A stretch of DNA of 64,000 nt from Methanobrevibacter sp. (GTDB lineage Archaea; Methanobacteriota; Methanobacteria; Methanobacteriales; Methanobacteriaceae), in the NCBI RefSeq assembly GCF_045611865.1, contig NZ_JAZKXX010000035.1, positions 26,939 through 90,938 of the forward strand. Reading direction: 5' to 3'. A program made the translations under genes and the position numbers. Each line of letters begins with the position of its first letter. The first letter of the stretch is position 1. The notes under the pieces were generated by a model. That model saw only the letters and a list, made by a program, of their open reading frames with translations. It was not told the DNA's origin and searched no databases. This document shows, piece after piece, positions 49,083 to 59,003 of this stretch.

Positions 49083-50942
49083 ATGGACGCTAAAACAAAA
49101 CAAATAGCTACTGATTTATCTTATGAAATCATAAGAGAAGTCGGAAGAGCAATCAGACCATACGTGGGAAAAGAAGAGTCTGGTGAAAAAGTTAAAATGG
49201 GTGCCGATGGAACTCCAACTTCATTAATTGATGTAATAGCTGAAGACAAAATAATCAATATTTTAAAAAATGCACCAGTATTATCCTACATTGTAAGTGA
49301 AGAAATTGGTGAATTAAAATTAGGTAAAGGTACTAAAAGAAGTGTTGTTTTAACACAAGAATTGAGACGTGATGATTTAAAGGACGATGAAATTCCAAGT
49401 TTTATATTCTTAATTGATCCTGTTGATGGAACAAACAATGCAATTAAAGAAATTCCTGCATTTGGAATATCCATAGCAGTTGCTGAAGTAAACCAAGGAC
49501 GTCTTGCAACATTAAATGATGTGGAACTTGGTTTTATAAGCAATTTTGCAAATGGTAACTTCTTTGAAGCTGAAAAAGGAAAGGGATGTTGGCTAAATAA
49601 TGAAGAAGTGCAACCTAGTGACGTCATTAACATTAGTGACATGACCCTTGGAGGATTTACCAAAAGTGGAACATCAGAAGCTTCAAAATTAGTTGACAAT
49701 GCCCGCCGTATGAGAGTTCTTGGAAGTGTAGTATTAGAATTATCATATGTGGCAAGTGGAAGATATGATGCCTTTTTGGACCTAAGAGGAAGTAGAATAC
49801 TAGATATTGCAGCCTCAAAATTAATTTTAGAAGAAGCAGGATGTATCATAACCAACAAATATGGTCAAAAACTTAACAATAATTTAAGCATTTATGAAAA
49901 AACAATCGTAGTTGCCGCAAATAATAAGATACTCCACAAACAAATGATTGATATTTTAAATGATAATCAGACTGACTTTATTGGAAAAATCGGCCTAATT
50001 TCAAGAATAGACCAAACAAGACCAATACTATTTTCTGCAAAAATAATTGATTATCTTTTAACCAATGGAAGAGAAGTGGAAATCGAAAGAAGACTAGCCC
50101 ATAAATTAACTGAACTAAAAGAAAATCCTGATTTAGACAATATCATCAAAAAAGTAAAAGAAAATCATCCCGAAATTGCAGATTCACTGAACAATATTAA
50201 CTTTAACATTGATTATAACCAACTCGCCCAAAATATTTTTGACTTTGATTGTGATATGGCGGTTATTCTTGGAGGAGACGGAACACTTCTCCGAGCACAG
50301 GCCAAAATGAAACCTGAAATCCCAATTTTCGGAATAAATATGGGAACTGTCGGATTTTTAACAGAAATTGAGGCAGCACATACCTTTGAAGCATTAAATG
50401 ATATTCTCAGTGGGGATTATTATAAAGAAAAAAGAACCAGACTTGTTGTTTCACACGAAAATCACAACTTCACTGCAATGAATGAAGTAGTTGTAATGAC
50501 TGACAAGCCCGCAAAGATGCTTCACTTTGAAATACAAGTAGACGGAGAAATAATTGAAGAAGTAAGAGCAGACGGATTAATTGTTTCAACTCCAAGTGGT
50601 TCAACAGCTTATGCAATGTCTGCAGGCGGACCAATAGTTGATCCTAAGGTTGGAGGATTTGTCATTATACCAATTTGTCCTTATAAACTTGGAGTAAGAC
50701 CTTTTGTAGTATCCGACAACAGTGAAATTACTGTTAAATTACTTAAGAAAGGTAAAACTGCAGTATTCGTAATGGACGGGCAAATTAATGAAGAAGCAGA
50801 ATATGAAGAAGAAATCAAGTTTAAAAAGTCCGATGAAGATGCGTACTTCATAAGGACTTCCACCAAATATTTCTATGAAAAAGTTAAAGACAAATTGAAT
50901 AAAGGTGGAATCGACAATACCCCTCGGTGCAACAATGAATAA
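49083..50942 (+). CDS. Bifunctional NADP phosphatase (IMPase-like) / NAD kinase fusion (MJ0917-type)
   Basis: The N-terminal half has IMPase motifs (LIDPVDGTNN, WDIAAS-like LDIAASKL). The C-terminal half has NAD kinase motifs GGDGTLL and NE...DGLIVSTPSGSTAY. Confidence 0.85.
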   Translation: MDAKTKQIATDLSYEIIREVGRAIRPYVGKEESGEKVKMGADGTPTSLIDVIAEDKIINILKNAPVLSYIVSEEIGELKLGKGTKRSVVLTQELRRDDLKDDEIPSFIFLIDPVDGTNNAIKEIPAFGISIAVAEVNQGRLATLNDVELGFISNFANGNFFEAEKGKGCWLNNEEVQPSDVINISDMTLGGFTKSGTSEASKLVDNARRMRVLGSVVLELSYVASGRYDAFLDLRGSRILDIAASKLILEEAGCIITNKYGQKLNNNLSIYEKTIVVAANNKILHKQMIDILNDNQTDFIGKIGLISRIDQTRPILFSAKIIDYLLTNGREVEIERRLAHKLTELKENPDLDNIIKKVKENHPEIADSLNNINFNIDYNQLAQNIFDFDCDMAVILGGDGTLLRAQAKMKPEIPIFGINMGTVGFLTEIEAAHTFEALNDILSGDYYKEKRTRLVVSHENHNFTAMNEVVVMTDKPAKMLHFEIQVDGEIIEEVRADGLIVSTPSGSTAYAMSAGGPIVDPKVGGFVIIPICPYKLGVRPFVVSDNSEITVKLLKKGKTAVFVMDGQINEEAEYEEEIKFKKSDEDAYFIRTSTKYFYEKVKDKLNKGGIDNTPRCNNE

Positions 50943-52353
50943 TCTTGTAATTGACCTAACACATGGTGGAGTAAAAATAGCTATTAGTTTAGCTAAAAAA
51001 GGAAAAAATGTCCTTGCATATGACCTTTATAATACACTAAAACCTATCGATAGTAGGATGTTAGCCATCTATAACATAGAAATCATCAAATTAGAAGATT
51101 TAACTGATTTTAAGGGAGATATGAATGTGATTTATCCCATCCATATGCCTTTAACCTTTAAAGAAATCAAATCATATAATCCTGATTTAAATTACACTTT
51201 TCAAAGCCATCACGAATCCGTTCGTGATATTTTAAGTGATTGGGGAGAAGATATTTTAAAAATTGAAGTTACGGGAGTTAAAGGAAAAACAACTTCTGTT
51301 TTCATGCTCAAAGAAATTTTAATTGAAGATAATCCATTAATTTTATCAAGTTTGGGTGCTTTATTATATGAAAACAATAAGGAAATTATCCTAAAAAAAG
51401 ATATTTCTATTACACCCGCAAATATTAAAGAAACAATTGATTTGGCATATAAAATAGCAAATCCTGTTTGTAAAATTGCTGAAGGCATTGTTGAAAGTGA
51501 AAATTTAAGAAAGTATAACACAGCAATTTTTGAATCATCATTAGGTGCGAGTGGAATTGGTGATGTTGGACTCCTGTTAAATATTGCAGAAGATTATCCT
51601 ATTGCTAAAGGCAAAAGTAGTGCATCTAAAGCTAAAAAGCAAGTATTTAACTGTAAATGCGTATGCATTCAAAAAGAAGCATTCGACAAGTATTATTCAG
51701 ATATCAAACACGACAAGATCAATACCTTTTCGCTTACTGATGAATCCTCAAATCTATACATAAAAAATGTTAAATATGATTTAGACAAAACACATGCAGA
51801 TATAGAGTATAATAATGTTAAAACAATCAATGGCAACGCCATTTCGGGAAAGTTGAGTTTAAAAAGCTTCGCACCAGGACCTCACCATGTAAGCAATCTT
51901 TTGGGAATTGTATTGACTTGTCTTAGTTTAGAAATTGACACCACCAAAATAATAAATGGAATCAAAAATTATAAAGGAATTCCGGGCAGAACAAATAAAA
52001 AAACGATTGAAAACTCAATAATTATTGAAGAAATCAATCCTGGGTTAAATACACAAGCCATAAAAGAATCCATAAACATGATTAATAATTTAGACGATTA
52101 TTATATCTCCATTGGCGGAGATTATGGGATAACTTGTGAAGAAATTAATGAAGAAAAATTATCTGGCTTTTTAAATACATTAAATCATGATATTCTTTTA
52201 ACTGGAGAAGTTGGAAAATCAATAGCTCCAAAACTAACTGTAGACACCAAATACTATGAAAATTATTCAGACATTTATGAGTTGGCTATAAAAAATAATA
52301 AAAATCTTCTTTTCATATTTCGTTCAGATTATAGGAAACTCAAACAGAGATAA
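50935..52353 (+). CDS. cfbE: Mur-ligase-family protein, probable coenzyme F430 synthase (CfbE)
   Basis: N-terminal VIDLTHGG Rossmann-like start, and a Mur ligase P-loop VTGVKGKTT. ATG overlaps the nadK stop by 8 nt. hemC is downstream. A pseudomurein peptide ligase is not excluded. Confidence 0.5.
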   Translation: MNNLVIDLTHGGVKIAISLAKKGKNVLAYDLYNTLKPIDSRMLAIYNIEIIKLEDLTDFKGDMNVIYPIHMPLTFKEIKSYNPDLNYTFQSHHESVRDILSDWGEDILKIEVTGVKGKTTSVFMLKEILIEDNPLILSSLGALLYENNKEIILKKDISITPANIKETIDLAYKIANPVCKIAEGIVESENLRKYNTAIFESSLGASGIGDVGLLLNIAEDYPIAKGKSSASKAKKQVFNCKCVCIQKEAFDKYYSDIKHDKINTFSLTDESSNLYIKNVKYDLDKTHADIEYNNVKTINGNAISGKLSLKSFAPGPHHVSNLLGIVLTCLSLEIDTTKIINGIKNYKGIPGRTNKKTIENSIIIEEINPGLNTQAIKESINMINNLDDYYISIGGDYGITCEEINEEKLSGFLNTLNHDILLTGEVGKSIAPKLTVDTKYYENYSDIYELAIKNNKNLLFIFRSDYRKLKQR

Positions 52354-52465
52354 TTTTCTAAAAATTGAAACATTTAATATATATTAATTGCAAAAATTAA
52401 AAATGTAACAAAAGGTTACACTTTAAACTTTATATAATTAGATTTTAAAAACTTGGAGATAATAG

Positions 52466-53338
52466 ATGATTGTAGGAACACGAGGTAGTCAATTAGCTTT
52501 AGTACAAACTAAACAAGTATGTGCTGATTTATCCAAAATTACTGGAGAAACTATTGATATCGAAATTATCAAGACCAAAGGGGATAAAATTACTACTTCC
52601 CAATTGTACAATATGGATTCTAAAGGATTATTTACTAAAGAATTAGATATTGCACTTTTAGATGAAGAGGTTGACTTTACAGTACATAGCTTTAAAGACT
52701 TGCCAACTGAATTGGATGAAGATTTAGAAATAATAGCTGTTCCAAAACGTGAATCTCCAAATGAAGTATTAATATCTTCAAAAAAATGGGCTGAATTAGG
52801 TCCAGGATCAAAGCTTGGAACCAGTAGCCTTAGAAGAGAAGCATTTTGTAATCTTTATGAAAAAGAATTTGAACTTAAACCTATAAGGGGAAATATCGAA
52901 ACTAGGATTGATAAAGCTTTAAATACTGATTTAGATGCAACCATCATGGCTCAAGCAGGCATTAAAAGATTAAATCTAACAAAATACATCAAAGAAGTAT
53001 TTCCACTTGATTATATCACACCACCTGCAGGCCAGGGTGCATTAGCTATTATCACTAGAAAAGATTATGATAAAAACGAAGTTATCAAAAATGCTTTAAA
53101 TGATTATGTATCAATGCAAGAAGTATTTGCAGAAAAGAAAGTCTTAGAAGAGCTTGGTGTTGGTTGTCAATGGCCAATAGGCGCAATAGCTCAAATGAAA
53201 GACAAAGAATTTAATATTTATTCAATATTATTGACTAAAGAAGGAGAAATCCTTAAAGAGCAAAACGCGAAAGGTTCTATAAGGGATGCGGTTGAACTTG
53301 GCGGCCGTATAGGAAGACTTTTCGCGGATTATGTTTAA
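52466..53338 (+). CDS. hemC: Hydroxymethylbilane synthase (porphobilinogen deaminase)
   Basis: IVGTRGSQLALVQT, KGLFTKELD, RGNIETR and PAGQGALAI motifs. Confidence 0.9.
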   Translation: MIVGTRGSQLALVQTKQVCADLSKITGETIDIEIIKTKGDKITTSQLYNMDSKGLFTKELDIALLDEEVDFTVHSFKDLPTELDEDLEIIAVPKRESPNEVLISSKKWAELGPGSKLGTSSLRREAFCNLYEKEFELKPIRGNIETRIDKALNTDLDATIMAQAGIKRLNLTKYIKEVFPLDYITPPAGQGALAIITRKDYDKNEVIKNALNDYVSMQEVFAEKKVLEELGVGCQWPIGAIAQMKDKEFNIYSILLTKEGEILKEQNAKGSIRDAVELGGRIGRLFADYV

Positions 53339-53352
53339 ACGGAGGAATTAAA

Positions 53353-54306
53353 TTGGAAACTATTAACGTAGGAGTTATTGGGGTAGGCGCAATGGGTGAA
53401 AACCACGTTCGTGTATACCACAAAATGGAAGAAGCGAATTTACTCGCTGTTAGTGATGTGAGCGAAAGAGCACTTAAAAAAATTGAAAAGAAATATGGTG
53501 CAAAAGGATATACTGACTATAATACGCTACTTGAAAACCCCGAAATAGAAGCTGTAAGTGTCTGTGTTCCAACTACATTCCACCATGCAGTAGTAATGGA
53601 AGCTATTAAACATAAAAAACATGTTTTAGTTGAAAAACCAATAGCATTCACATTAGAAGAAGCTGAAGAAATGATTGCTGCTGCAAAAGAAGCTGGAGTT
53701 ATGCTTGCAACAGGACACGTTGAAAGATTCAACCCTGCGGTTCAAAAAGCTAAAGAACTTATTGAAGATGGAGTTATTGGAGATGTAGTATCTGCATTTG
53801 CAAAAAGAGTAGGACCTCTCCCACCAAGAATTAAAGACGTTGGTGTTTCAATTGATTTAGCTATTCACGATTTAGATATTATGAATTTTTTATTCGATGA
53901 AGAGGTCACCCAAGTTTATGGAGCAATGAACTCCAGTTTTGATGACAGCGAATTCGAAGACCATGCAGAAATAATGGTTAACTTTGATAATGAAACAACT
54001 GGAATTATTGAAGTAAATTGGTTAACACCATATAAAAGGAGAGAATTAGAACTTACCGGTACTGCAGGAATTATTTCCGTAGATTATATTAAACAAAGTA
54101 TTGAAGTATACGGTAAATTTGCTCAAGATATACAAATTAAACATGAAGAACCACTTAAAGGAGAATTGAAATCATTCCTAAATGCAGTAGTAAATGAAAT
54201 CGAACCTGAAATTACTGGTGAAGACGGACTTAAAGCTCTTAAAATGGTTATTGCCGCTAATAGATCTTCTAAAGAACATAAACCTATTAGTTTTGAGGAA
54301 TTATAA
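53353..54306 (+). CDS. Gfo/Idh/MocA family NAD-dependent oxidoreductase (possibly a UDP-sugar 3-dehydrogenase)
   Basis: VGVIGVGAMGENHVRVY Rossmann N-terminus and an EKP motif (VLVEKPIA). TTG start 7 nt after GGAGGA. Confidence 0.7.
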   Translation: METINVGVIGVGAMGENHVRVYHKMEEANLLAVSDVSERALKKIEKKYGAKGYTDYNTLLENPEIEAVSVCVPTTFHHAVVMEAIKHKKHVLVEKPIAFTLEEAEEMIAAAKEAGVMLATGHVERFNPAVQKAKELIEDGVIGDVVSAFAKRVGPLPPRIKDVGVSIDLAIHDLDIMNFLFDEEVTQVYGAMNSSFDDSEFEDHAEIMVNFDNETTGIIEVNWLTPYKRRELELTGTAGIISVDYIKQSIEVYGKFAQDIQIKHEEPLKGELKSFLNAVVNEIEPEITGEDGLKALKMVIAANRSSKEHKPISFEEL

Positions 54307-54319
54307 TTAAGGTGATAAA

Positions 54320-54928
54320 GTGAAACAAAAATTAATTAACAAAGCCCAAGAACTCAGACAACATGGATTTACCACTGGTGAAATTGCAGATGAACTTAAT
54401 GTTAGTATGGATACCGCTAGATGGTTAACTCTTCAAAAAGCTGAAGAAAAGACTGAAGCTCCTGTTGACTTTGCTATTAACTGGAAAAGCATTGGTGGAA
54501 ATTCAACCCGTTTAAGTTATGTTTCTGGGGCATTAAGCGATATGGCTTTATCCCATGGTGATGCCGATACTATTGTAGGCATTGCAGTTAGCGGAGTTCC
54601 ATTTGCAACAGTTATGGCAGATTTTATTGAAGATATGACTGGACTTGATACTTCTTTAGCTATTTTCCACCCAAATAAACACAGAAAAGATGCGGATAAT
54701 ACTGAAGATGAAGGTACAATCAGTACCAACTTCGGAAGTGTTGAAGGTAAAAAAGTTGTCATTGTTGACGATGTTATTACCAGTGGGAAAACAGCTCGCG
54801 AAGTCATTCACACAGTAAAAGATTTAGGTGGAGACCCTACCTGTGTTACTGTATTAATCGATAAAGCAGGACTTTCCGAGATTGAAGGTGTTCCTGTTGA
54901 ATCTTTAATTAAAGTTAGTAGATTATAA
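54320..54928 (+). CDS. Orotate phosphoribosyltransferase-like protein with N-terminal HTH (GfcR/PyrE-like regulator family)
   Basis: N-terminal HTH ([22 protein letters not shown]) and the PRTase PRPP loop [13 protein letters not shown]. Confidence 0.7.
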
Positions 54929-54963: not shown

Positions 54964-54973
54964 TTTTATATAT
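54964..54973 (+). promoter_or_regulatory. TATA-box candidate for the HIRAN gene pair
   Basis: AACTTTTATATAT lies 51-60 nt upstream of ATG 55024, inside a 95-bp intergenic gap. Confidence 0.35.
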
Positions 54974-55023
54974 GCAATGAAACAATTTTAAAATACTTAC
55001 CCACATAATATGCACAAGGTGAT

Positions 55024-55419
55024 ATGATGTATATAACAATAATCGCATTCAATAAGTTCCATGGCTCCAAACCACTAGTTTTAGAAGGATTAGTAAAATT
55101 AGTTAAAGAACCAGACAATAAATACGATGCAGAAGCAATAGCCTGTGAAATGAGATATTTCGGAAAAATAGGTTATCTGGCAAACAGTACACAAACTGTA
55201 ATCAAAGGATGCATGAGTGCTGGACGTGTTCTTGATAAAATTGATGATGGATACTTTGCTAAAATTAAATTTGTCACAGACCATGCTGCAATTGCTAAAA
55301 TTTTAACACCTGATGAATTTATTAAAGAAATTGAAAATCAGGAAAGCGACATACATTATTTATGTGAAGACCCATCAGGCGTTGATTTAGAAAAAATTGA
55401 AAAAAACTTCATCAAGTAG
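55024..55419 (+). CDS. Stand-alone HIRAN domain protein
   Basis: 131 aa. FHGSKPLVLEGLVKLVKEPDNKYDAEAIACEM...GKIGYLANS matches the HIRAN pattern (xEPxNxYDxNAI...GYV/L). RBS GGTGA. Confidence 0.7.
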   Translation: MMYITIIAFNKFHGSKPLVLEGLVKLVKEPDNKYDAEAIACEMRYFGKIGYLANSTQTVIKGCMSAGRVLDKIDDGYFAKIKFVTDHAAIAKILTPDEFIKEIENQESDIHYLCEDPSGVDLEKIEKNFIK

Positions 55420-55422
55420 GTG

Positions 55423-56370
55423 ATGCTAATGATAATCAATAGTGACATAACATTTGATTATGAACTATTAACTGCCCAAGTCCACGAAAATATGGTAATA
55501 ATTCCAATTAAAACCACTCCAAATTATAGATTAGACATAATAACACTTAAAAAAGCAATTGAACTAGGTCTTGGCGAAGTTAAAGAATGTGAACAGTCCA
55601 CAGTTAACACATTAATTGTCAAGAATGATGCCATAACCCCACTAATATTAATTGATGGGGAGGAAGTAATTGGAGGAGATCAAAACCGTTTAGTCAACTC
55701 AACAATACTTGTTGCTCCTAAAAGCCAGATGAAAATTCCTGTAAGTTGTACCGAACGGGGCAGATGGGCTTATAAAAGTGAATTTAAAAATTCAGAATAT
55801 ATTGCAAATTATGAAACCCGCCGTGCCAAAATGAATGCCTCCAGATTAAACAGACCCGTGCAAAATACAGTCTGGTCCTCAATTGACAGTCTTGAGACTG
55901 TAAACGAATTTTGTTCACCGACAAGTGCAATGTCAGAAAGTTATGATAATCTAAAAATAGACCACAACGAATTCATAAAAGCGTTTTCTATCGAAGATAA
56001 TCAGAATGGTGTTGTGATAATAATAAATGGAGAAATTAAAGGATTCGAATTATTTTTAAATTCAGAAATATACAAAGAATTTCATGAAAAAATCCTGAAA
56101 AGTTATTTGATTGATGCAAAAAATGAAAATACTACCTTTTCAATCAACATCGATGAAGTTAAATTAGTGCTTGATAAAGCGATTGCTTCAAATTTCGAAA
56201 AAAAGAAAAGTGAGGGTCTTGAAGAAGTGTATGAATTTGAAAATGAATCTGGATTTGGAAAATTATACTCCTATGACCAAGAAATTATTCATTGGTCTTA
56301 CTTTAAACAAATTGAAGAAAATTCATTTAATGAATCAGAAGAAGATGTAGAGTTAGTGCCTGATGTCTAA
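55423..56370 (+). CDS. Uncharacterised protein resembling the DUF6569/'ARPP-1' family (from memory, unverified)
   Basis: About 315 aa. Starts within 4-12 nt of the HIRAN stop (GTG 55420, ATG 55423 or 55429; GGTG RBS). Conserved-looking block LILIDGEEVIGGDQNRLVNSTILV...IPVSCTERGRW. Confidence 0.45.
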   Translation: MLMIINSDITFDYELLTAQVHENMVIIPIKTTPNYRLDIITLKKAIELGLGEVKECEQSTVNTLIVKNDAITPLILIDGEEVIGGDQNRLVNSTILVAPKSQMKIPVSCTERGRWAYKSEFKNSEYIANYETRRAKMNASRLNRPVQNTVWSSIDSLETVNEFCSPTSAMSESYDNLKIDHNEFIKAFSIEDNQNGVVIIINGEIKGFELFLNSEIYKEFHEKILKSYLIDAKNENTTFSINIDEVKLVLDKAIASNFEKKKSEGLEEVYEFENESGFGKLYSYDQEIIHWSYFKQIEENSFNESEEDVELVPDV

Positions 56371-56387
56371 CTTCACATCTAACTAAC

Positions 56388-56729
56388 TCATTGATAAAGA
56401 GCAGAAACATCATCAACTACTCGAGATTCAGTAATAAATTCTGTAGAATCCTGTTTTTCATTAGAAACCCCGCCAATTACCCCAATACTTTGAATTGTAT
56501 CTTTTAGTAGGGTCATTGATATTACTCCAAGCCCTTCCTGAGACAATACAAACAAATCCAAAAACATTTCATCTTCTCCAACAATGAATGCTGGTTCGAT
56601 TACATCAGCGGATTTTGTTTGAACTTTAATTAAAATATTTTTTATTTCACTTTCACCATCAATTCCAATTTCATCTCTAATATTCTTATCTAAATTTTTA
56701 ACTTTTTCGCTCCAATTTATCGAATTCAT
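56388..56729 (-). CDS. Small acidic hypothetical protein
   Basis: 113 aa. Converges on the preceding gene with a 17-bp gap. Confidence 0.5.
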   Translation of the reverse strand: MNSINWSEKVKNLDKNIRDEIGIDGESEIKNILIKVQTKSADVIEPAFIVGEDEMFLDLFVLSQEGLGVISMTLLKDTIQSIGVIGGVSNEKQDSTEFITESRVVDDVSALYQ

Positions 56730-56901
56730 ATCAATTACCTCTTAATTTAGGCTTAAAATATAATCCCATATAATTCTCTCGATAAAATAGCATATAATTG
56801 TATTTTAACTGCAAAAAAGTGTAAAATCACAAATGCACAATGGGTTATGATAGTCTAAAAACAGCATTTAAATAAAAAAAAAAGTGTTTAAGAAAACTGA
56901 A

Positions 56902-57465
56902 TTAATCTTCAGCTTTCTCTTTTTTATCCTTTTTGTTAACAAGGACTAATTTTTCATTTTCTTCGTCAACTTCCATTACGATAGGTTCGTCTTCAACAGC
57001 ACCCGGATCTTTTTCCACACATTCATTAATTTTAGCTTGAATTGTCCCAATGTCTTCAGTATCGATTAAATCCACAATTTCTAACTGGTTTTGGAATCTT
57101 TCAATACCCTCGAGAGGAACATTTTCAACAAATGGAATAGCTCCGGTTGCTCCAGTAATTTTCTTTTTGTCAGGGTCTGCTCCGTTTTCATATAATGCTT
57201 TGATACTTTGACCTGTGATGTGGCCTTGTACTTCCGCACCCGTAATGATTAGAAAACGGATGTTAGGGTTTGAAATAATATTTGCAACTACTTTTTCTAT
57301 TCCTAAGTTTTCTGTTTTACATGGACCTGCGATTGCTGCCCCAGATAATTCTCCTTCAATGTGAGAAGCAAGTGTGGTTACTGCAACAGGGCTTTCAGGA
57401 TCACCCACTACATAATCCCCACTAATAACCGGCCAACCATCTGCAGGAGCTTTTTTATCAGCCAT
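56902..57465 (-). CDS. MtrA-like corrinoid-binding protein lacking the C-terminal membrane anchor (soluble MtrA paralogue)
   Basis: Closely parallels MtrA ([37 protein letters not shown], and GHITGQS containing the cobalt-ligand His). Ends in a Lys/Glu-rich tail instead of a TM helix. No other mtr genes nearby. Confidence 0.7.
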
Positions 57466-57583
57466 TATAAATCCTCCAAATATTCAGTTAAATATGACTA
57501 TATATTAAAGTATATTTAAATATTATGCAAGTTAATTTGTGCAACTATCACATTTATAACTCCCAATTTGCAAAATAATACCC

Positions 57584-58108
57584 ATGAACATTAATGTAGC
57601 ACTTTTTTATTTTATTAACAGAGGGCTTGAAAATCCATTTTTTGATTTAATACTTCCACAATTCACCAATATTGGAGGATTTGTAGGAGTATTTGTGCTA
57701 TGTACATTATCAATTATCATTTTCAAATATTATAACAAAGAAAAATACTTAAAGATAGCAAAATCATGTTTGTATGCTCTTTTAATCTCTGCAGCCATTG
57801 CATTGTGCCTTAAATTAGCCATTGTTGAAAAAAGGCCTTTTGAAGTTTTAAGTAATGTTCATCAACTTGTTATACCATCAGAACCCAATTCATTTCCTTC
57901 CGGACATTGCTCATCAACATTTAGCGTAATAACAATATTAATCCACGACCTGTGGGAAAACAAGGCTATTGTAATTCTTTTAGCAATTTTTTGTGTGTTA
58001 ATTGCATTTTCAAGAGTATACTGTGGAGTTCACTACCCGTCAGATGTGGTGGTTGGAGCGATGGTTGGAATTTTAAGTGGAATATTAGTCTTGAAGTTAA
58101 AAATATAA
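57584..58108 (+). CDS. PAP2-family lipid phosphatase (undecaprenyl/dolichyl-diphosphatase-like)
   Basis: KxxxxxxRP (KLAIVEKRP), PSGH (FPSGHCS) and SRxxxxxHxxxD (SRVYCGVHYPSD) motifs. Confidence 0.8.
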   Translation: MNINVALFYFINRGLENPFFDLILPQFTNIGGFVGVFVLCTLSIIIFKYYNKEKYLKIAKSCLYALLISAAIALCLKLAIVEKRPFEVLSNVHQLVIPSEPNSFPSGHCSSTFSVITILIHDLWENKAIVILLAIFCVLIAFSRVYCGVHYPSDVVVGAMVGILSGILVLKLKI

Positions 58109-58387
58109 CTCTGATGGATGACCAATATATTCAAAATCATCTTTATTTTTTAAATATTTAACACCGATGACTTTTCCATCAGGAAATTTTGTTACAACAC
58201 TCATCCCATCATTGATATCAATAACTATTACTTTTGTGTTTTTCTCACCTTTAGTTTCAATTTTAATTATATCATCATTCTGGATTAATTCGCCATCTTC
58301 AAATTCGTTACTTACATCTGTGGAAAACCAATGTTGTGGTAACTTAACCCTTAATCCTAAACCATCTAATAAATCTTTTACATGCAT
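58097..58387 (-). CDS. Hypothetical protein
   Basis: 96-aa ORF. The 3' end overlaps the PAP2 3' end by 12 nt (convergent). Confidence 0.45.
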   Translation of the reverse strand: MHVKDLLDGLGLRVKLPQHWFSTDVSNEFEDGELIQNDDIIKIETKGEKNTKVIVIDINDGMSVVTKFPDGKVIGVKYLKNKDDFEYIGHPSELYF

Positions 58388-58484
58388 CTTTATAATCTCC
58401 TTAAAAATATTTTTAATATCTACATGAAATTATATAAAAAAAGAATATTTAAAGATATTGTAACTTTTCAAGGGTGAAAAGTAA

Positions 58485-59003
58485 CTAAACTAAAAAATGA
58501 ATTTTATTTTTATCAATATCTTCCAGAGTATGAGGCTTAGGAATGTCATCAGAATGGCCCAAAGCGAGAATGCCTACAATCCTGTAATGATCATCAATCT
58601 TTAAAATATCCCTAACAACGTCTTCAGAATCCTGGCCGTCTTTACTTCTAAGACGTATCTGAACCCAGCAACTTCCCAAGTCAAGCTCAGTAGCCATTAA
58701 ATGCATGTGAGTTAAAGCAATAGATGAATCCTCACACCAAGTATCGGCCACCAAAGTATCTGCAACTACAACTATGGCTTTATCCGCCCCTTTAATTAAA
58801 TCCGCCCCATGGTCTTTAGCTTGAGACAATTTATTTAAGATTTCTTTTCTTTCAACAACCATAAAATTACATGGTTTTCTATTCATACTAGTAGGAGCTA
58901 GAAGCGCTGCTTGTAAGATTTTATCAAGCTCATCTTTAGTGATTTTTTCATCATTAAATTTTCTTGTACTTCTTCTTTTAAGCATTAAATCAGTTAATGT
59001 CAT
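58485..59003 (-). CDS. Nitroreductase family protein
   Basis: RRSTRKF N-terminal motif. 172 aa. Confidence 0.75.
   Translation of the reverse strand: MTLTDLMLKRRSTRKFNDEKITKDELDKILQAALLAPTSMNRKPCNFMVVERKEILNKLSQAKDHGADLIKGADKAIVVVADTLVADTWCEDSSIALTHMHLMATELDLGSCWVQIRLRSKDGQDSEDVVRDILKIDDHYRIVGILALGHSDDIPKPHTLEDIDKNKIHFLV

Follow-up and report, generated by a model that had tools for sequence, protein, structure and literature searches.

What are two adjoining genes, one for a HIRAN protein and one for a protein of the ARPP-1/DUF6569 family, doing between the housekeeping genes of a methanogen? The question arises in a 64,000-nucleotide (nt) stretch of Methanobrevibacter DNA, called the window here and meaning that stretch at its full length, where two same-strand open reading frames (ORFs) lie between a GfcR-like phosphoribosyltransferase (PRTase) gene (54320-54928) and a gene for an MtrA paralogue (56902-57465, minus strand). 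A preliminary description of the DNA had taken them for a self-contained pair, perhaps a minimal DNA-end-sensing defence or repair module of a type not described before. We found that the locus is a member of a two-gene HIRAN-ARPP module already in print. A comparative genomics study without reported experiments (Iyer, Burroughs, Anantharaman, Aravind 2022, Viruses 14:1977; PMC9503650) describes in section 3.8 and Fig. 7c three two-gene neighbourhoods of ARPP that are conserved outside ARG-centred systems; HIRAN is the partner in one of them, and the others pair ARPP with a deacetylase or a WYL transcription factor. Because the HIRAN neighbourhood is listed there, together with a mechanistic proposal, the pairing is not new, and the suggestion of an undescribed type falls. 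Both proteins also bear standard database names. The window pair has the same two domains in the same order and in tight linkage, carries the conserved Cys and Gln, and shows no difference in kind from the published neighbourhood. What appears to go beyond the text of that study is a variable site shared with type I methylase and specificity (S) genes, the confinement, in our sample, of the HIRAN-linked copies to one clade of gut and rumen (host-associated) Methanobacteriaceae, and partners of the M78/IrrE-like, REC, MerR, Translin and NAMPT types. The pair and the signals around it are laid out as follows (aa, amino acids).

54964-54973, plus strand: TATA-like element TTTTATATAT, a candidate archaeal promoter of the pair, 54-63 nt 5' of the ATG at 55027; a weak assignment made from the sequence.
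55016-55023, plus strand: Shine-Dalgarno-like AAGGTGAT of the HIRAN gene.
55027-55419 (alternative start 55024), plus strand: stand-alone HIRAN protein, 130 aa, with the barrel spanning roughly residues 1-95, then an acidic, helical tail that is conserved (ENxESDxHYL).
55418-55424, plus strand: Shine-Dalgarno sequence AGGTGAT in front of ARPP-1; it overlaps TAG (55417-55419), at which the HIRAN gene stops.
55429-56370, plus strand: ARPP-1/DUF6569 protein, 313 aa; the longest ORF runs from GTG 55420, and gene callers and homologues start at ATG 55429.

The second gene is a full-length member of the ARPP-1/DUF6569 family, as the preliminary description had proposed. Its product matched the Pfam family ARPP-1 (PF20208) at E = 5e-77 and 259.6 bits (cut-off 27), over profile positions 2-297 of 297, and its NCBI homologues are named 'ARPP-1 family domain-containing protein' and 'DUF6569 family protein'. 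At 50% clustering, 5,910 representatives match the window protein at E<=0.001. We aligned it with 60 diverse family members that are 27-62% identical to it, and found E53, G77, G82, Q85, R87, V105, C107, E109, R112 and W113, all carried by a predicted beta-rich insert, as well as Q145 and W149, to be invariant throughout. The parts of the gene that matter most for what follows are these (AF2, AlphaFold2).

55573-55803, plus strand: predicted beta-rich insert, residues ~49-125, from the AF2 strand order and the invariant columns.
55681-55683, plus strand: codon of Q85, an invariant column of the alignment.
55747-55749, plus strand: codon of C107, an invariant column of the alignment.

The published account of ARPP gives an absolutely conserved Cys and Gln and a duplicated beta-meander fold with an inserted beta-barrel (PMC9503650). 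Our AF2 model of the window protein (predicted local distance difference test, pLDDT, 84; predicted template-modelling score, pTM, 0.85) has a strand and helix order that is compatible with a beta-meander core and an inserted beta-rich domain, the comparison being one of element order. Foldseek searches of the model against PDB and BFVD returned nothing at E<=1e-3, and a profile of the 60 ARPP-1 sequences returned nothing meaningful from the PDB sequences. Sliding clamps and PheRS, the top Foldseek matches, were rejected as structural relatives, being noise at a template-modelling (TM) score of ~0.1. We also set aside the names 'tubulin-like protein' (an NCBI annotation of a metagenome-assembled genome) and 'DNA-binding cell septation regulator SpoVG' (JGI), which are given to the homologues P0018 and P0041; no profile or structure supports them, and they look like mis-annotations.

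For the first gene the Pfam score is marginal, since HIRAN (PF08797) matched at E = 5.2e-5 and 23.4 bits, narrowly below the gathering score of 24.7. In spite of this we assign it, on profile and model evidence, as a stand-alone HIRAN protein, because three kinds of comparison agree. First, most homologue clusters of the gene carry a precomputed PF08797 match, some of them flagged as weak. Second, two family profiles run against the PDB sequences found the stand-alone HIRAN protein lp_0118 (3k2y) at E = 0.026 and 0.046; five HIRAN sequences of HLTF came next, with E values of 0.6-0.8. Third, the top 13 Foldseek matches of its AF2 model, itself of mediocre quality (pLDDT 67), were all HIRAN structures (HLTF 4xzg, 4s0n, 4xzf, 6kcs and 5bnh; lp_0118 3k2y), with probabilities of 0.60-0.95 and TM scores of 0.37-0.44. 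The preliminary assignment thus holds up. Matches in other libraries were weak (PADLOC candidate PDC-M03B, E = 0.009; phrog_27141, 3e-5), and a 17-sequence HIRAN profile gave 2,488 matches, which were all Methanobrevibacter-like among the 120 listed.

Across the clade the HIRAN protein keeps a motif, EPxNxYDxxAI, in which the N, D, E, A and I columns are invariant; the window version, EPDNKYDAEAI, aligns with DPNNPYDKNAI of HLTF and ESGNQYDDNAI of lp_0118. The HIRAN domain of HLTF/Rad5 binds the 3'-OH end of DNA and drives fork reversal. With it the window protein has in common the fold and the pocket motif xPxNxYDxxAI. In contrast to HLTF/Rad5, it stands alone at 130 aa, without fusion to a SWI/SNF ATPase or RING domain, and it has in addition a conserved segment, NSTxTVxKGxMSxGRxYDKI, and the helical acidic tail. 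Y93 of HLTF, which lies within the aligned motif, is one of two tyrosines that stack on the bound dinucleotide, and a dinucleotide is all that this domain holds (PMC4666394). In its longer, near-invariant form, NSTxTVxKGxMSxGRxYDKIxD, the additional segment, which is specific to the clade, occupies 55186-55248 of the window (HIRAN residues 53-74 in the 130-aa numbering). It overlaps the part of the AF2 model with the lowest confidence (residues 46-62) and is without counterpart in the HLTF alignment; it could be a contact with ARPP-1 or an additional DNA-binding loop.

The layout of the pair bears out much of the preliminary description. Both ORFs had been located correctly; their likely starts move to 55027 (130 aa) and 55429 (313 aa). 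We favour ATG 55027 for the HIRAN gene because its homologues begin with MYITI and because AAGGTGAT stands at the right place in front of it; of the six aligned sequences covering the region, five keep AGGTGA 5' of this start, and the sixth, L002 (relatives are cited by such locus numbers), has AGACGA. The overlap of the second gene's ribosome-binding site with the first gene's stop, noted before, is real. Only 9 nt separate the HIRAN stop from ATG 55429. Co-transcription of the two genes is likely. They had also been called almost certainly co-translated. Here the tight layout and the likely co-transcription stand, but the spacing is not conserved: 39-83 nt lie between the genes in L014-L016, and in L087 the distance is 210 nt. 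Because gaps in relatives reach 210 nt, translational coupling is not a family trait, and we ruled it out as a conserved property of the pair. The TATA-like box claimed for the pair had a similarly mixed outcome. An octamer, TTTATATA (54965-54972), is well placed for an archaeal TATA box, but the AT-rich window contains it 19 times, where 12.9 occurrences would be expected, and it is kept in the closest relative, L002, only, not being conserved in L007-L013. That it serves the pair as a TATA box is plausible but unproven.

In order to follow the pair across genomes, we scanned one genome per species, which gave at least 599 pattern matches, and kept the best 80 of at least 594 confirmed ARPP-1 loci. 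A HIRAN gene lies directly 5' of ARPP-1, on the same strand, in every Methanobrevibacter locus from L005 to L017 and in both Methanosphaera loci (L019, L022). In the other loci of this sample, from Methanobacterium, other archaea and many bacterial phyla, HIRAN was not found 5' of ARPP-1. Further pairs came from Methanobrevibacter sp. YE315 (L001), M. smithii-like contigs (L086) and the metagenome contigs L087, L088 and L170-L172. The two genes stay adjacent and in the same order in all of the HIRAN-ARPP-1 loci, which number more than 20 and reach down to 36% ARPP-1 identity, and all HIRAN-linked loci with a named taxon in our sample belong to Methanobrevibacter or Methanosphaera. Neighbour-joining of 84 ARPP-1 proteins placed the 17 HIRAN-linked copies together in one clade, within which two non-adjacent copies are nested, a tandem duplicate of M. 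intestini and L018. By this tree the inheritance of the HIRAN-linked copies looks vertical, within that one clade.

Strong purifying selection acts on both genes, as it does on their housekeeping neighbours. Against the 83%-identical relative L002, the ratio of nonsynonymous to synonymous substitution rates (dN/dS) was 0.044 for HIRAN and 0.093 for ARPP-1, and 0.03-0.09 for the neighbours NAD kinase (NADK), CfbE, HemC, GFO, GfcR-like and MtrA. In absolute terms ARPP-1 diverges faster, being 64% identical to that of L007 compared with 78-93% for the flanking proteins, yet it is clearly constrained. In GC content the pair and its flanks are equal.

The family also showed what may stand in the place of HIRAN. 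We tabulated the immediately 5' gene in the 60 ARPP-1 loci without HIRAN, with the following partners.

9 of 60 loci: WYL/WCX transcription factor.
7 of 60 loci: XRE helix-turn-helix (HTH) protein with Peptidase_M78 (IrrE/ImmA-like), 440-470 aa (for example L032, L038, L039, L055).
3 of 60 loci: bare receiver (REC) domain, all in Methanobacterium (L021, L024, L036).
2 of 60 loci: MerR regulator, in Actinomycetota (L040, L054).

Outside these 60, single look-ups added a Translin gene (L174) and another WYL transcription factor. WYL regulators (PafBC, DriD) and IrrE respond to single-stranded DNA or DNA damage. Many ARPP-1 genes are without an adjacent small partner and lie 200-500 nt from unrelated genes, and the genes 3' of ARPP-1 are heterogeneous and show no pattern. 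Because the upstream partner varies and the downstream genes are patternless, we read ARPP-1 as a constant effector behind interchangeable small sensors or regulators, and the swapping of partners would fit an effector of a nucleic-acid or damage sensor. DNA-repair genes occur nearby in some loci, namely Ogt in YE315, exonuclease VII in L086, and RecQ twice among the downstream genes.

The site at which the pair lies was surveyed by a metagenome scan seeded with the GfcR-like protein, followed by tblastn, which yielded relatives whose GfcR-like proteins are 81-92% identical. Its far edge is a small ORF, and the site was found in five states.

56388-56729, minus strand: orf113, a convergent acidic ORF of 113 aa, 17 base pairs (bp) past ARPP-1, at the far edge of the variable site and outside the module.
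L092-L094: site empty, GfcR-like gene and orf113 32 bp apart, and no pair within 7 kb on either side.
Window, L002, L005: pair only.
L098, L107, L129, L108: methylase and S only.
L100, L103: pair, methylase and S.
L095, L102, L012: Kef-like transporter, pair, methylase and S.

Three further contigs end inside or just after ARPP-1, two with the pair (L096, L101) and one with transporter and pair (L097). The interval from the GfcR-like gene to orf113 is thus a small hotspot of variation. Between ARPP-1 and orf113, L006-L013 carry genes for a 557-aa type I methyltransferase and for a half-size specificity subunit of 192 aa (PADLOC MTase_I and Specificity_I); beside these genes we saw no restriction subunit in the sister species. 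One example is L007:6895-9143, and the equivalent position of the window, 56371-56387, is without methylase and S. The claim that a self-contained pair was inserted between housekeeping genes is supported because L092-L094 have the GfcR-like gene and orf113 adjacent without it. Alignment of empty, methylase-and-S-only and filled sites revealed no insertion scars. Around the pair there were no flanking direct or inverted repeats beyond short AT-rich chance matches, no tRNA genes and no GC shift.

The flanks are indeed unrelated to the pair, as had been noted. Around it lie genes for the GfcR-like PRTase (NCBIfam PRK02277, E = 1.6e-75), GFO/IDH/MocA, HemC, CfbE, NAD kinase, orf113, MtrA, PAP2 and a nitroreductase, and the ten flanking genes (49083-54928 and 56388-59003) are of housekeeping type by Pfam or without a Pfam family. 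The order NADK-CfbE-HemC-GFO-GfcR-HIRAN-ARPP1-...-orf113-MtrA is kept in L002-L013. The convergent acidic ORF 17 bp downstream, pointed out earlier, is 62-85% identical in about ten syntenic species; it had no match in Pfam, NCBIfam, PADLOC or PHROGs. We rejected it as a third component of the module, as it stays with the MtrA side and apart from the pair in most relatives. A second small ORF, of 96 aa (58097-58387, minus strand), has no Pfam family and is kept together with orf113 at 62-90% identity in syntenic Methanobrevibacter; because of this conservation both ORFs are taken as real genes flanking the MtrA paralogue. At the other end of the block, 49083-50942 (plus strand) encodes a 619-aa fusion of an inositol-monophosphatase-like domain and NAD kinase directly 5' of CfbE (50905-52353, plus strand). 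The longest CfbE ORF overlaps the fusion by 38 nt, and a later start codon is suggested because relatives call CfbE at 472 aa.

Across the clade the two genes were found together in at least nine genomic contexts, among them the following.

YE315 (L001): between a HAD hydrolase gene and Ogt.
L014: near a SocA/Panacea gene and CobD.
L015: beside an aldo-keto reductase gene.
L087: between MarR and CBAH.
L170: between LOG/acetyltransferase genes and an MFS transporter gene.
L171: after a Mur-ligase-like gene.
M. smithii/intestini-like L017:3102-6903 and L086:8001-11802: ARPP-1b, then NAMPT-HIRAN-ARPP-1a, with a NAMPT-HIRAN gap of 1 nt.

The pair thus moves as a unit, in a context that is stable in the short term and variable in the longer term. 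The preliminary description had held that a locus conserved throughout the genus, without link to variable regions, would speak against its proposal; in fact the site differs among close relatives.

What the pair does can be proposed with less assurance. The reading that we favour, tentatively and at a confidence that falls a little short of even, is that this member of the published module uses HIRAN to target a Cys-dependent, sugar-acting ARPP-1 to 3' ends or single-stranded DNA, as an accessory, vertically transmitted DNA-end or damage response of Methanobrevibacter and Methanosphaera. We propose that the pair belongs neither to the core housekeeping genes nor to the classical mobile defence cassettes. 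Made from genes that are probably co-transcribed, HIRAN would recognise the free 3'-OH ends of single-stranded or frayed DNA, which may come from stalled or broken replication forks, gaps or incoming linear DNA, and would recruit or license ARPP-1. The latter would be an enzyme without a solved fold relative, with Cys107, Glu109, Arg112 and Trp113 together with Gln85, Asn86 and Arg87 in the beta-rich insert. It may act on a sugar at or near the DNA end, such as deoxyribose, an abasic site or an ADP-ribose adduct, possibly through a covalent thiol intermediate.

SRAP proteins (HMCES/YedK) crosslink covalently to abasic sites in single-stranded DNA via their N-terminal Cys2, in a thiazolidine link. 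The 2022 authors drew the likeness to ARPP through a conserved Cys that would work on a sugar in the setting of DNA; they proposed sugar moieties as the target of ARPP, perhaps attacked through a covalent Cys link like that of SRAP (PMC9503650). In contrast to SRAP, ARPP-1 has an unrelated fold, with no PDB sequence or structure match, and its Cys, at position 107, is internal. The comparison with SRAP is one of analogy and not of family membership.

Several points count against the DNA-end reading. Because Cys107 is internal, the thiazolidine chemistry of SRAP is inapplicable as such to ARPP-1. Binding of 3' ends by the window HIRAN is an extrapolation, because the Pfam score is marginal, the AF2 model is poor in loop 46-62, and HLTF Y72 is apparently not conserved. 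The DNA-repair neighbours are few and could be there by chance, and the partner frequencies are those of a biased sample because they derive from the best 80 of at least 594 loci. A variable site beside type I methylase and S genes fits conflict as well as it fits an accessory repair role. In the literature searched there were no experimental data on any ARPP-1 protein and no mention of the domain beyond PMC9503650, and the names DUF6569 and PF20208 led to no further papers.

Immunity against viruses or plasmids is the main rival, and we consider it possible but unlikely. HIRAN would here sense the 3' ends of foreign DNA or its degradation products and activate ARPP-1 to modify or block ends or to act on ADP-ribosylated targets, and the site would be a small defence hotspot. 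Its states among close relatives (empty, pair only, methylase and S only, or both) are what such a hotspot might look like. Among the many contexts of the pair, some lie near a SocA/Panacea antitoxin-domain gene, AAA_14/DUF4143 ATPases or an integrase. WYL and XRE-M78 proteins, which take the place of HIRAN elsewhere, also regulate defence systems and are typical regulators of them. The ARPP family was first defined within ARG-centred predicted conflict systems (PMC9503650), and stand-alone HIRAN proteins, predicted as antitoxins of HipA-like kinases, occur in HIRAN-HipA clusters that are predicted to be defensive (PMC11706625). To this come the weak matches of the window HIRAN to PDC-M03B and phrog_27141.

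The searches of defence and mobile-element data point the other way. ARPP-1 had no match in PADLOC (PADLOC-DB v2.0.0), PHROGs or NCBIfam, and among catalogued systems in PADLOC the HIRAN protein reached only PDC-M03B. Records of phages contained ARPP-1 in 0 of 50,697 cases and plasmids in 3 of 72,556. Among 2.9 million IMG/VR contigs there was one partial match (L085:5001-5384), to query residues 24-143 at 35% identity on a 72-kb contig, which could be a provirus edge or host contamination. Rapid evolution is not seen, as dN/dS of 0.04-0.09 is that of housekeeping neighbours, and the HIRAN-linked copies look vertically inherited. The pair comes without a nuclease, NADase or membrane effector, no restriction subunit was seen next to the M and S genes, and its flanking genes are of the kinds given above. 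The defence role suggested by the preliminary description is not established: there is no PADLOC or PHROGs match for ARPP-1, it is rare on mobile elements, composition shows no anomaly, and selection is housekeeping-like. The signs for a location in a defence island are mixed: the pair is variable at the same site in close relatives, some of which have type I methylase and S genes beside it, but the neighbours in the window are housekeeping genes, without repeats, tRNA genes or a GC shift.

The known systems nearest to such a role also differ from the pair. ARG-centred anti-ADP-ribosylation systems have the ARPP-1 family in common with it. They are bacterial, whereas the window pair is archaeal and is without adjoining ARG, rhodanese-phosphatase, Macro, NADAR, Nudix/WYL factor, chaperone or REase; the ARG gene with phosphatase and/or Nudix/WYL factor that marks these systems was absent from the genes flanking the pair. 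The earlier remark that the usual ARPP partners are missing was accurate, as no ARG, phosphatase, nuclease or helicase gene is adjacent. HipA-HIRAN (HipI) toxin-antitoxin-like operons and the PADLOC candidate PDC-M03 likewise have a stand-alone prokaryotic HIRAN in a small operon, and the window HIRAN matches PDC-M03B weakly, but the partner here is ARPP-1 and not a HipA kinase, and no PADLOC model matched at a meaningful score. In a separate alignment-mode PADLOC scan, 67 ORFs of the window gave matches to mad3 (2 ORFs, 1e-25), mad8 (2 ORFs), Csa3 (2e-20), pVip (2e-16), ATPase-Toprim and AriA. None of these matches was found in the ten window ORFs tested individually; they must belong to ORFs outside these ten and may reflect generic domains.

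A further version, which we hold to be doubtful, is a self-sufficient, NAD+-linked DNA-end surveillance system in host-associated methanogens. HIRAN would capture damaged or foreign 3' ends, ARPP-1, as an enzyme with a fold not seen before, would use Cys107 to bond covalently to a sugar or ADP-ribose lesion there or to remove it, and bacteria would connect this effector to WYL, IrrE-like, MerR or REC sensors. If true, this would mean new enzymatic chemistry in DNA repair or immunity.

A metabolic or signalling pair of NAD+ or ADP-ribose, with no DNA substrate, is improbable. On this account HIRAN would bind a nucleotide or ADP-ribose-like molecule, in keeping with the single dinucleotide that HLTF HIRAN takes up (PMC4666394), and ARPP-1 would process ribose. 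The NAMPT-HIRAN-ARPP-1 operon of M. smithii-like genomes, with its second ARPP-1 copy, appears to link the archaeal pair to NAD+ salvage, and ARG, Macro and phosphatases are among the associates of the ARPP family (PMC9503650). The link to NAMPT, however, was seen in one lineage only (L017, L086), in which the cluster adjoins exonuclease VII (XseA/XseB), AAA_14/DUF4143 ATPases and a phage-type integrase. Beside the window pair there is no gene related to NAD or ADP-ribose; NAD kinase (49083-50942) lies 4 kb off in the conserved housekeeping block. Moreover, the substitute partners of ARPP-1 are DNA-binding or DNA-damage regulators.

Still less probable is a toxin-antitoxin-like or self-regulating pair, in which the small HIRAN protein would, by analogy with HipA-HIRAN, neutralise or repress a growth-inhibiting ARPP-1. 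A small gene followed closely by a larger one, a unit that relocates as a whole, HTH regulators in the upstream slot of other lineages, and the predicted antitoxin role of HIRAN in HipA operons (PMC11706625) would all agree with it. ARPP-1, however, is not a known toxin family, and the evidence gathered held no sign of toxicity; it often has no adjacent small partner, with gaps of 200-500 nt. Except in the M. smithii-like L017 and L086, which have two copies, there is one ARPP-1 per locus, mostly single-copy and stably syntenic in about ten species. It is rare on plasmids and phages, with no enrichment there, and HIRAN has no HTH domain for autoregulation. Mere adjacency of functionally unrelated genes agrees with the lack of direct interaction evidence between HIRAN and ARPP-1, and is highly improbable, since the pairs, more than 20 of them and in nine or more contexts, all keep adjacency and order even where ARPP-1 identity is as low as 36%.

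In summary, the favoured reading, an accessory DNA-end or damage response, concerns a large family, ARPP-1, with an invariant constellation of Cys, Glu, Gln and Arg. The HIRAN-ARPP pair of methanogens is the simplest context of this family, consisting of one predicted reader of DNA ends and one predicted enzyme, and because of this simplicity it offers the cleanest entry to ARPP-1 function. If DNA-end sugars or ADP-ribose adducts are indeed what ARPP-1 acts on, it would be a new enzyme class in DNA repair or nucleic-acid immunity, with relevance also to genome biology in Methanobrevibacter, which is the dominant methanogen both in the human gut and in the rumen.

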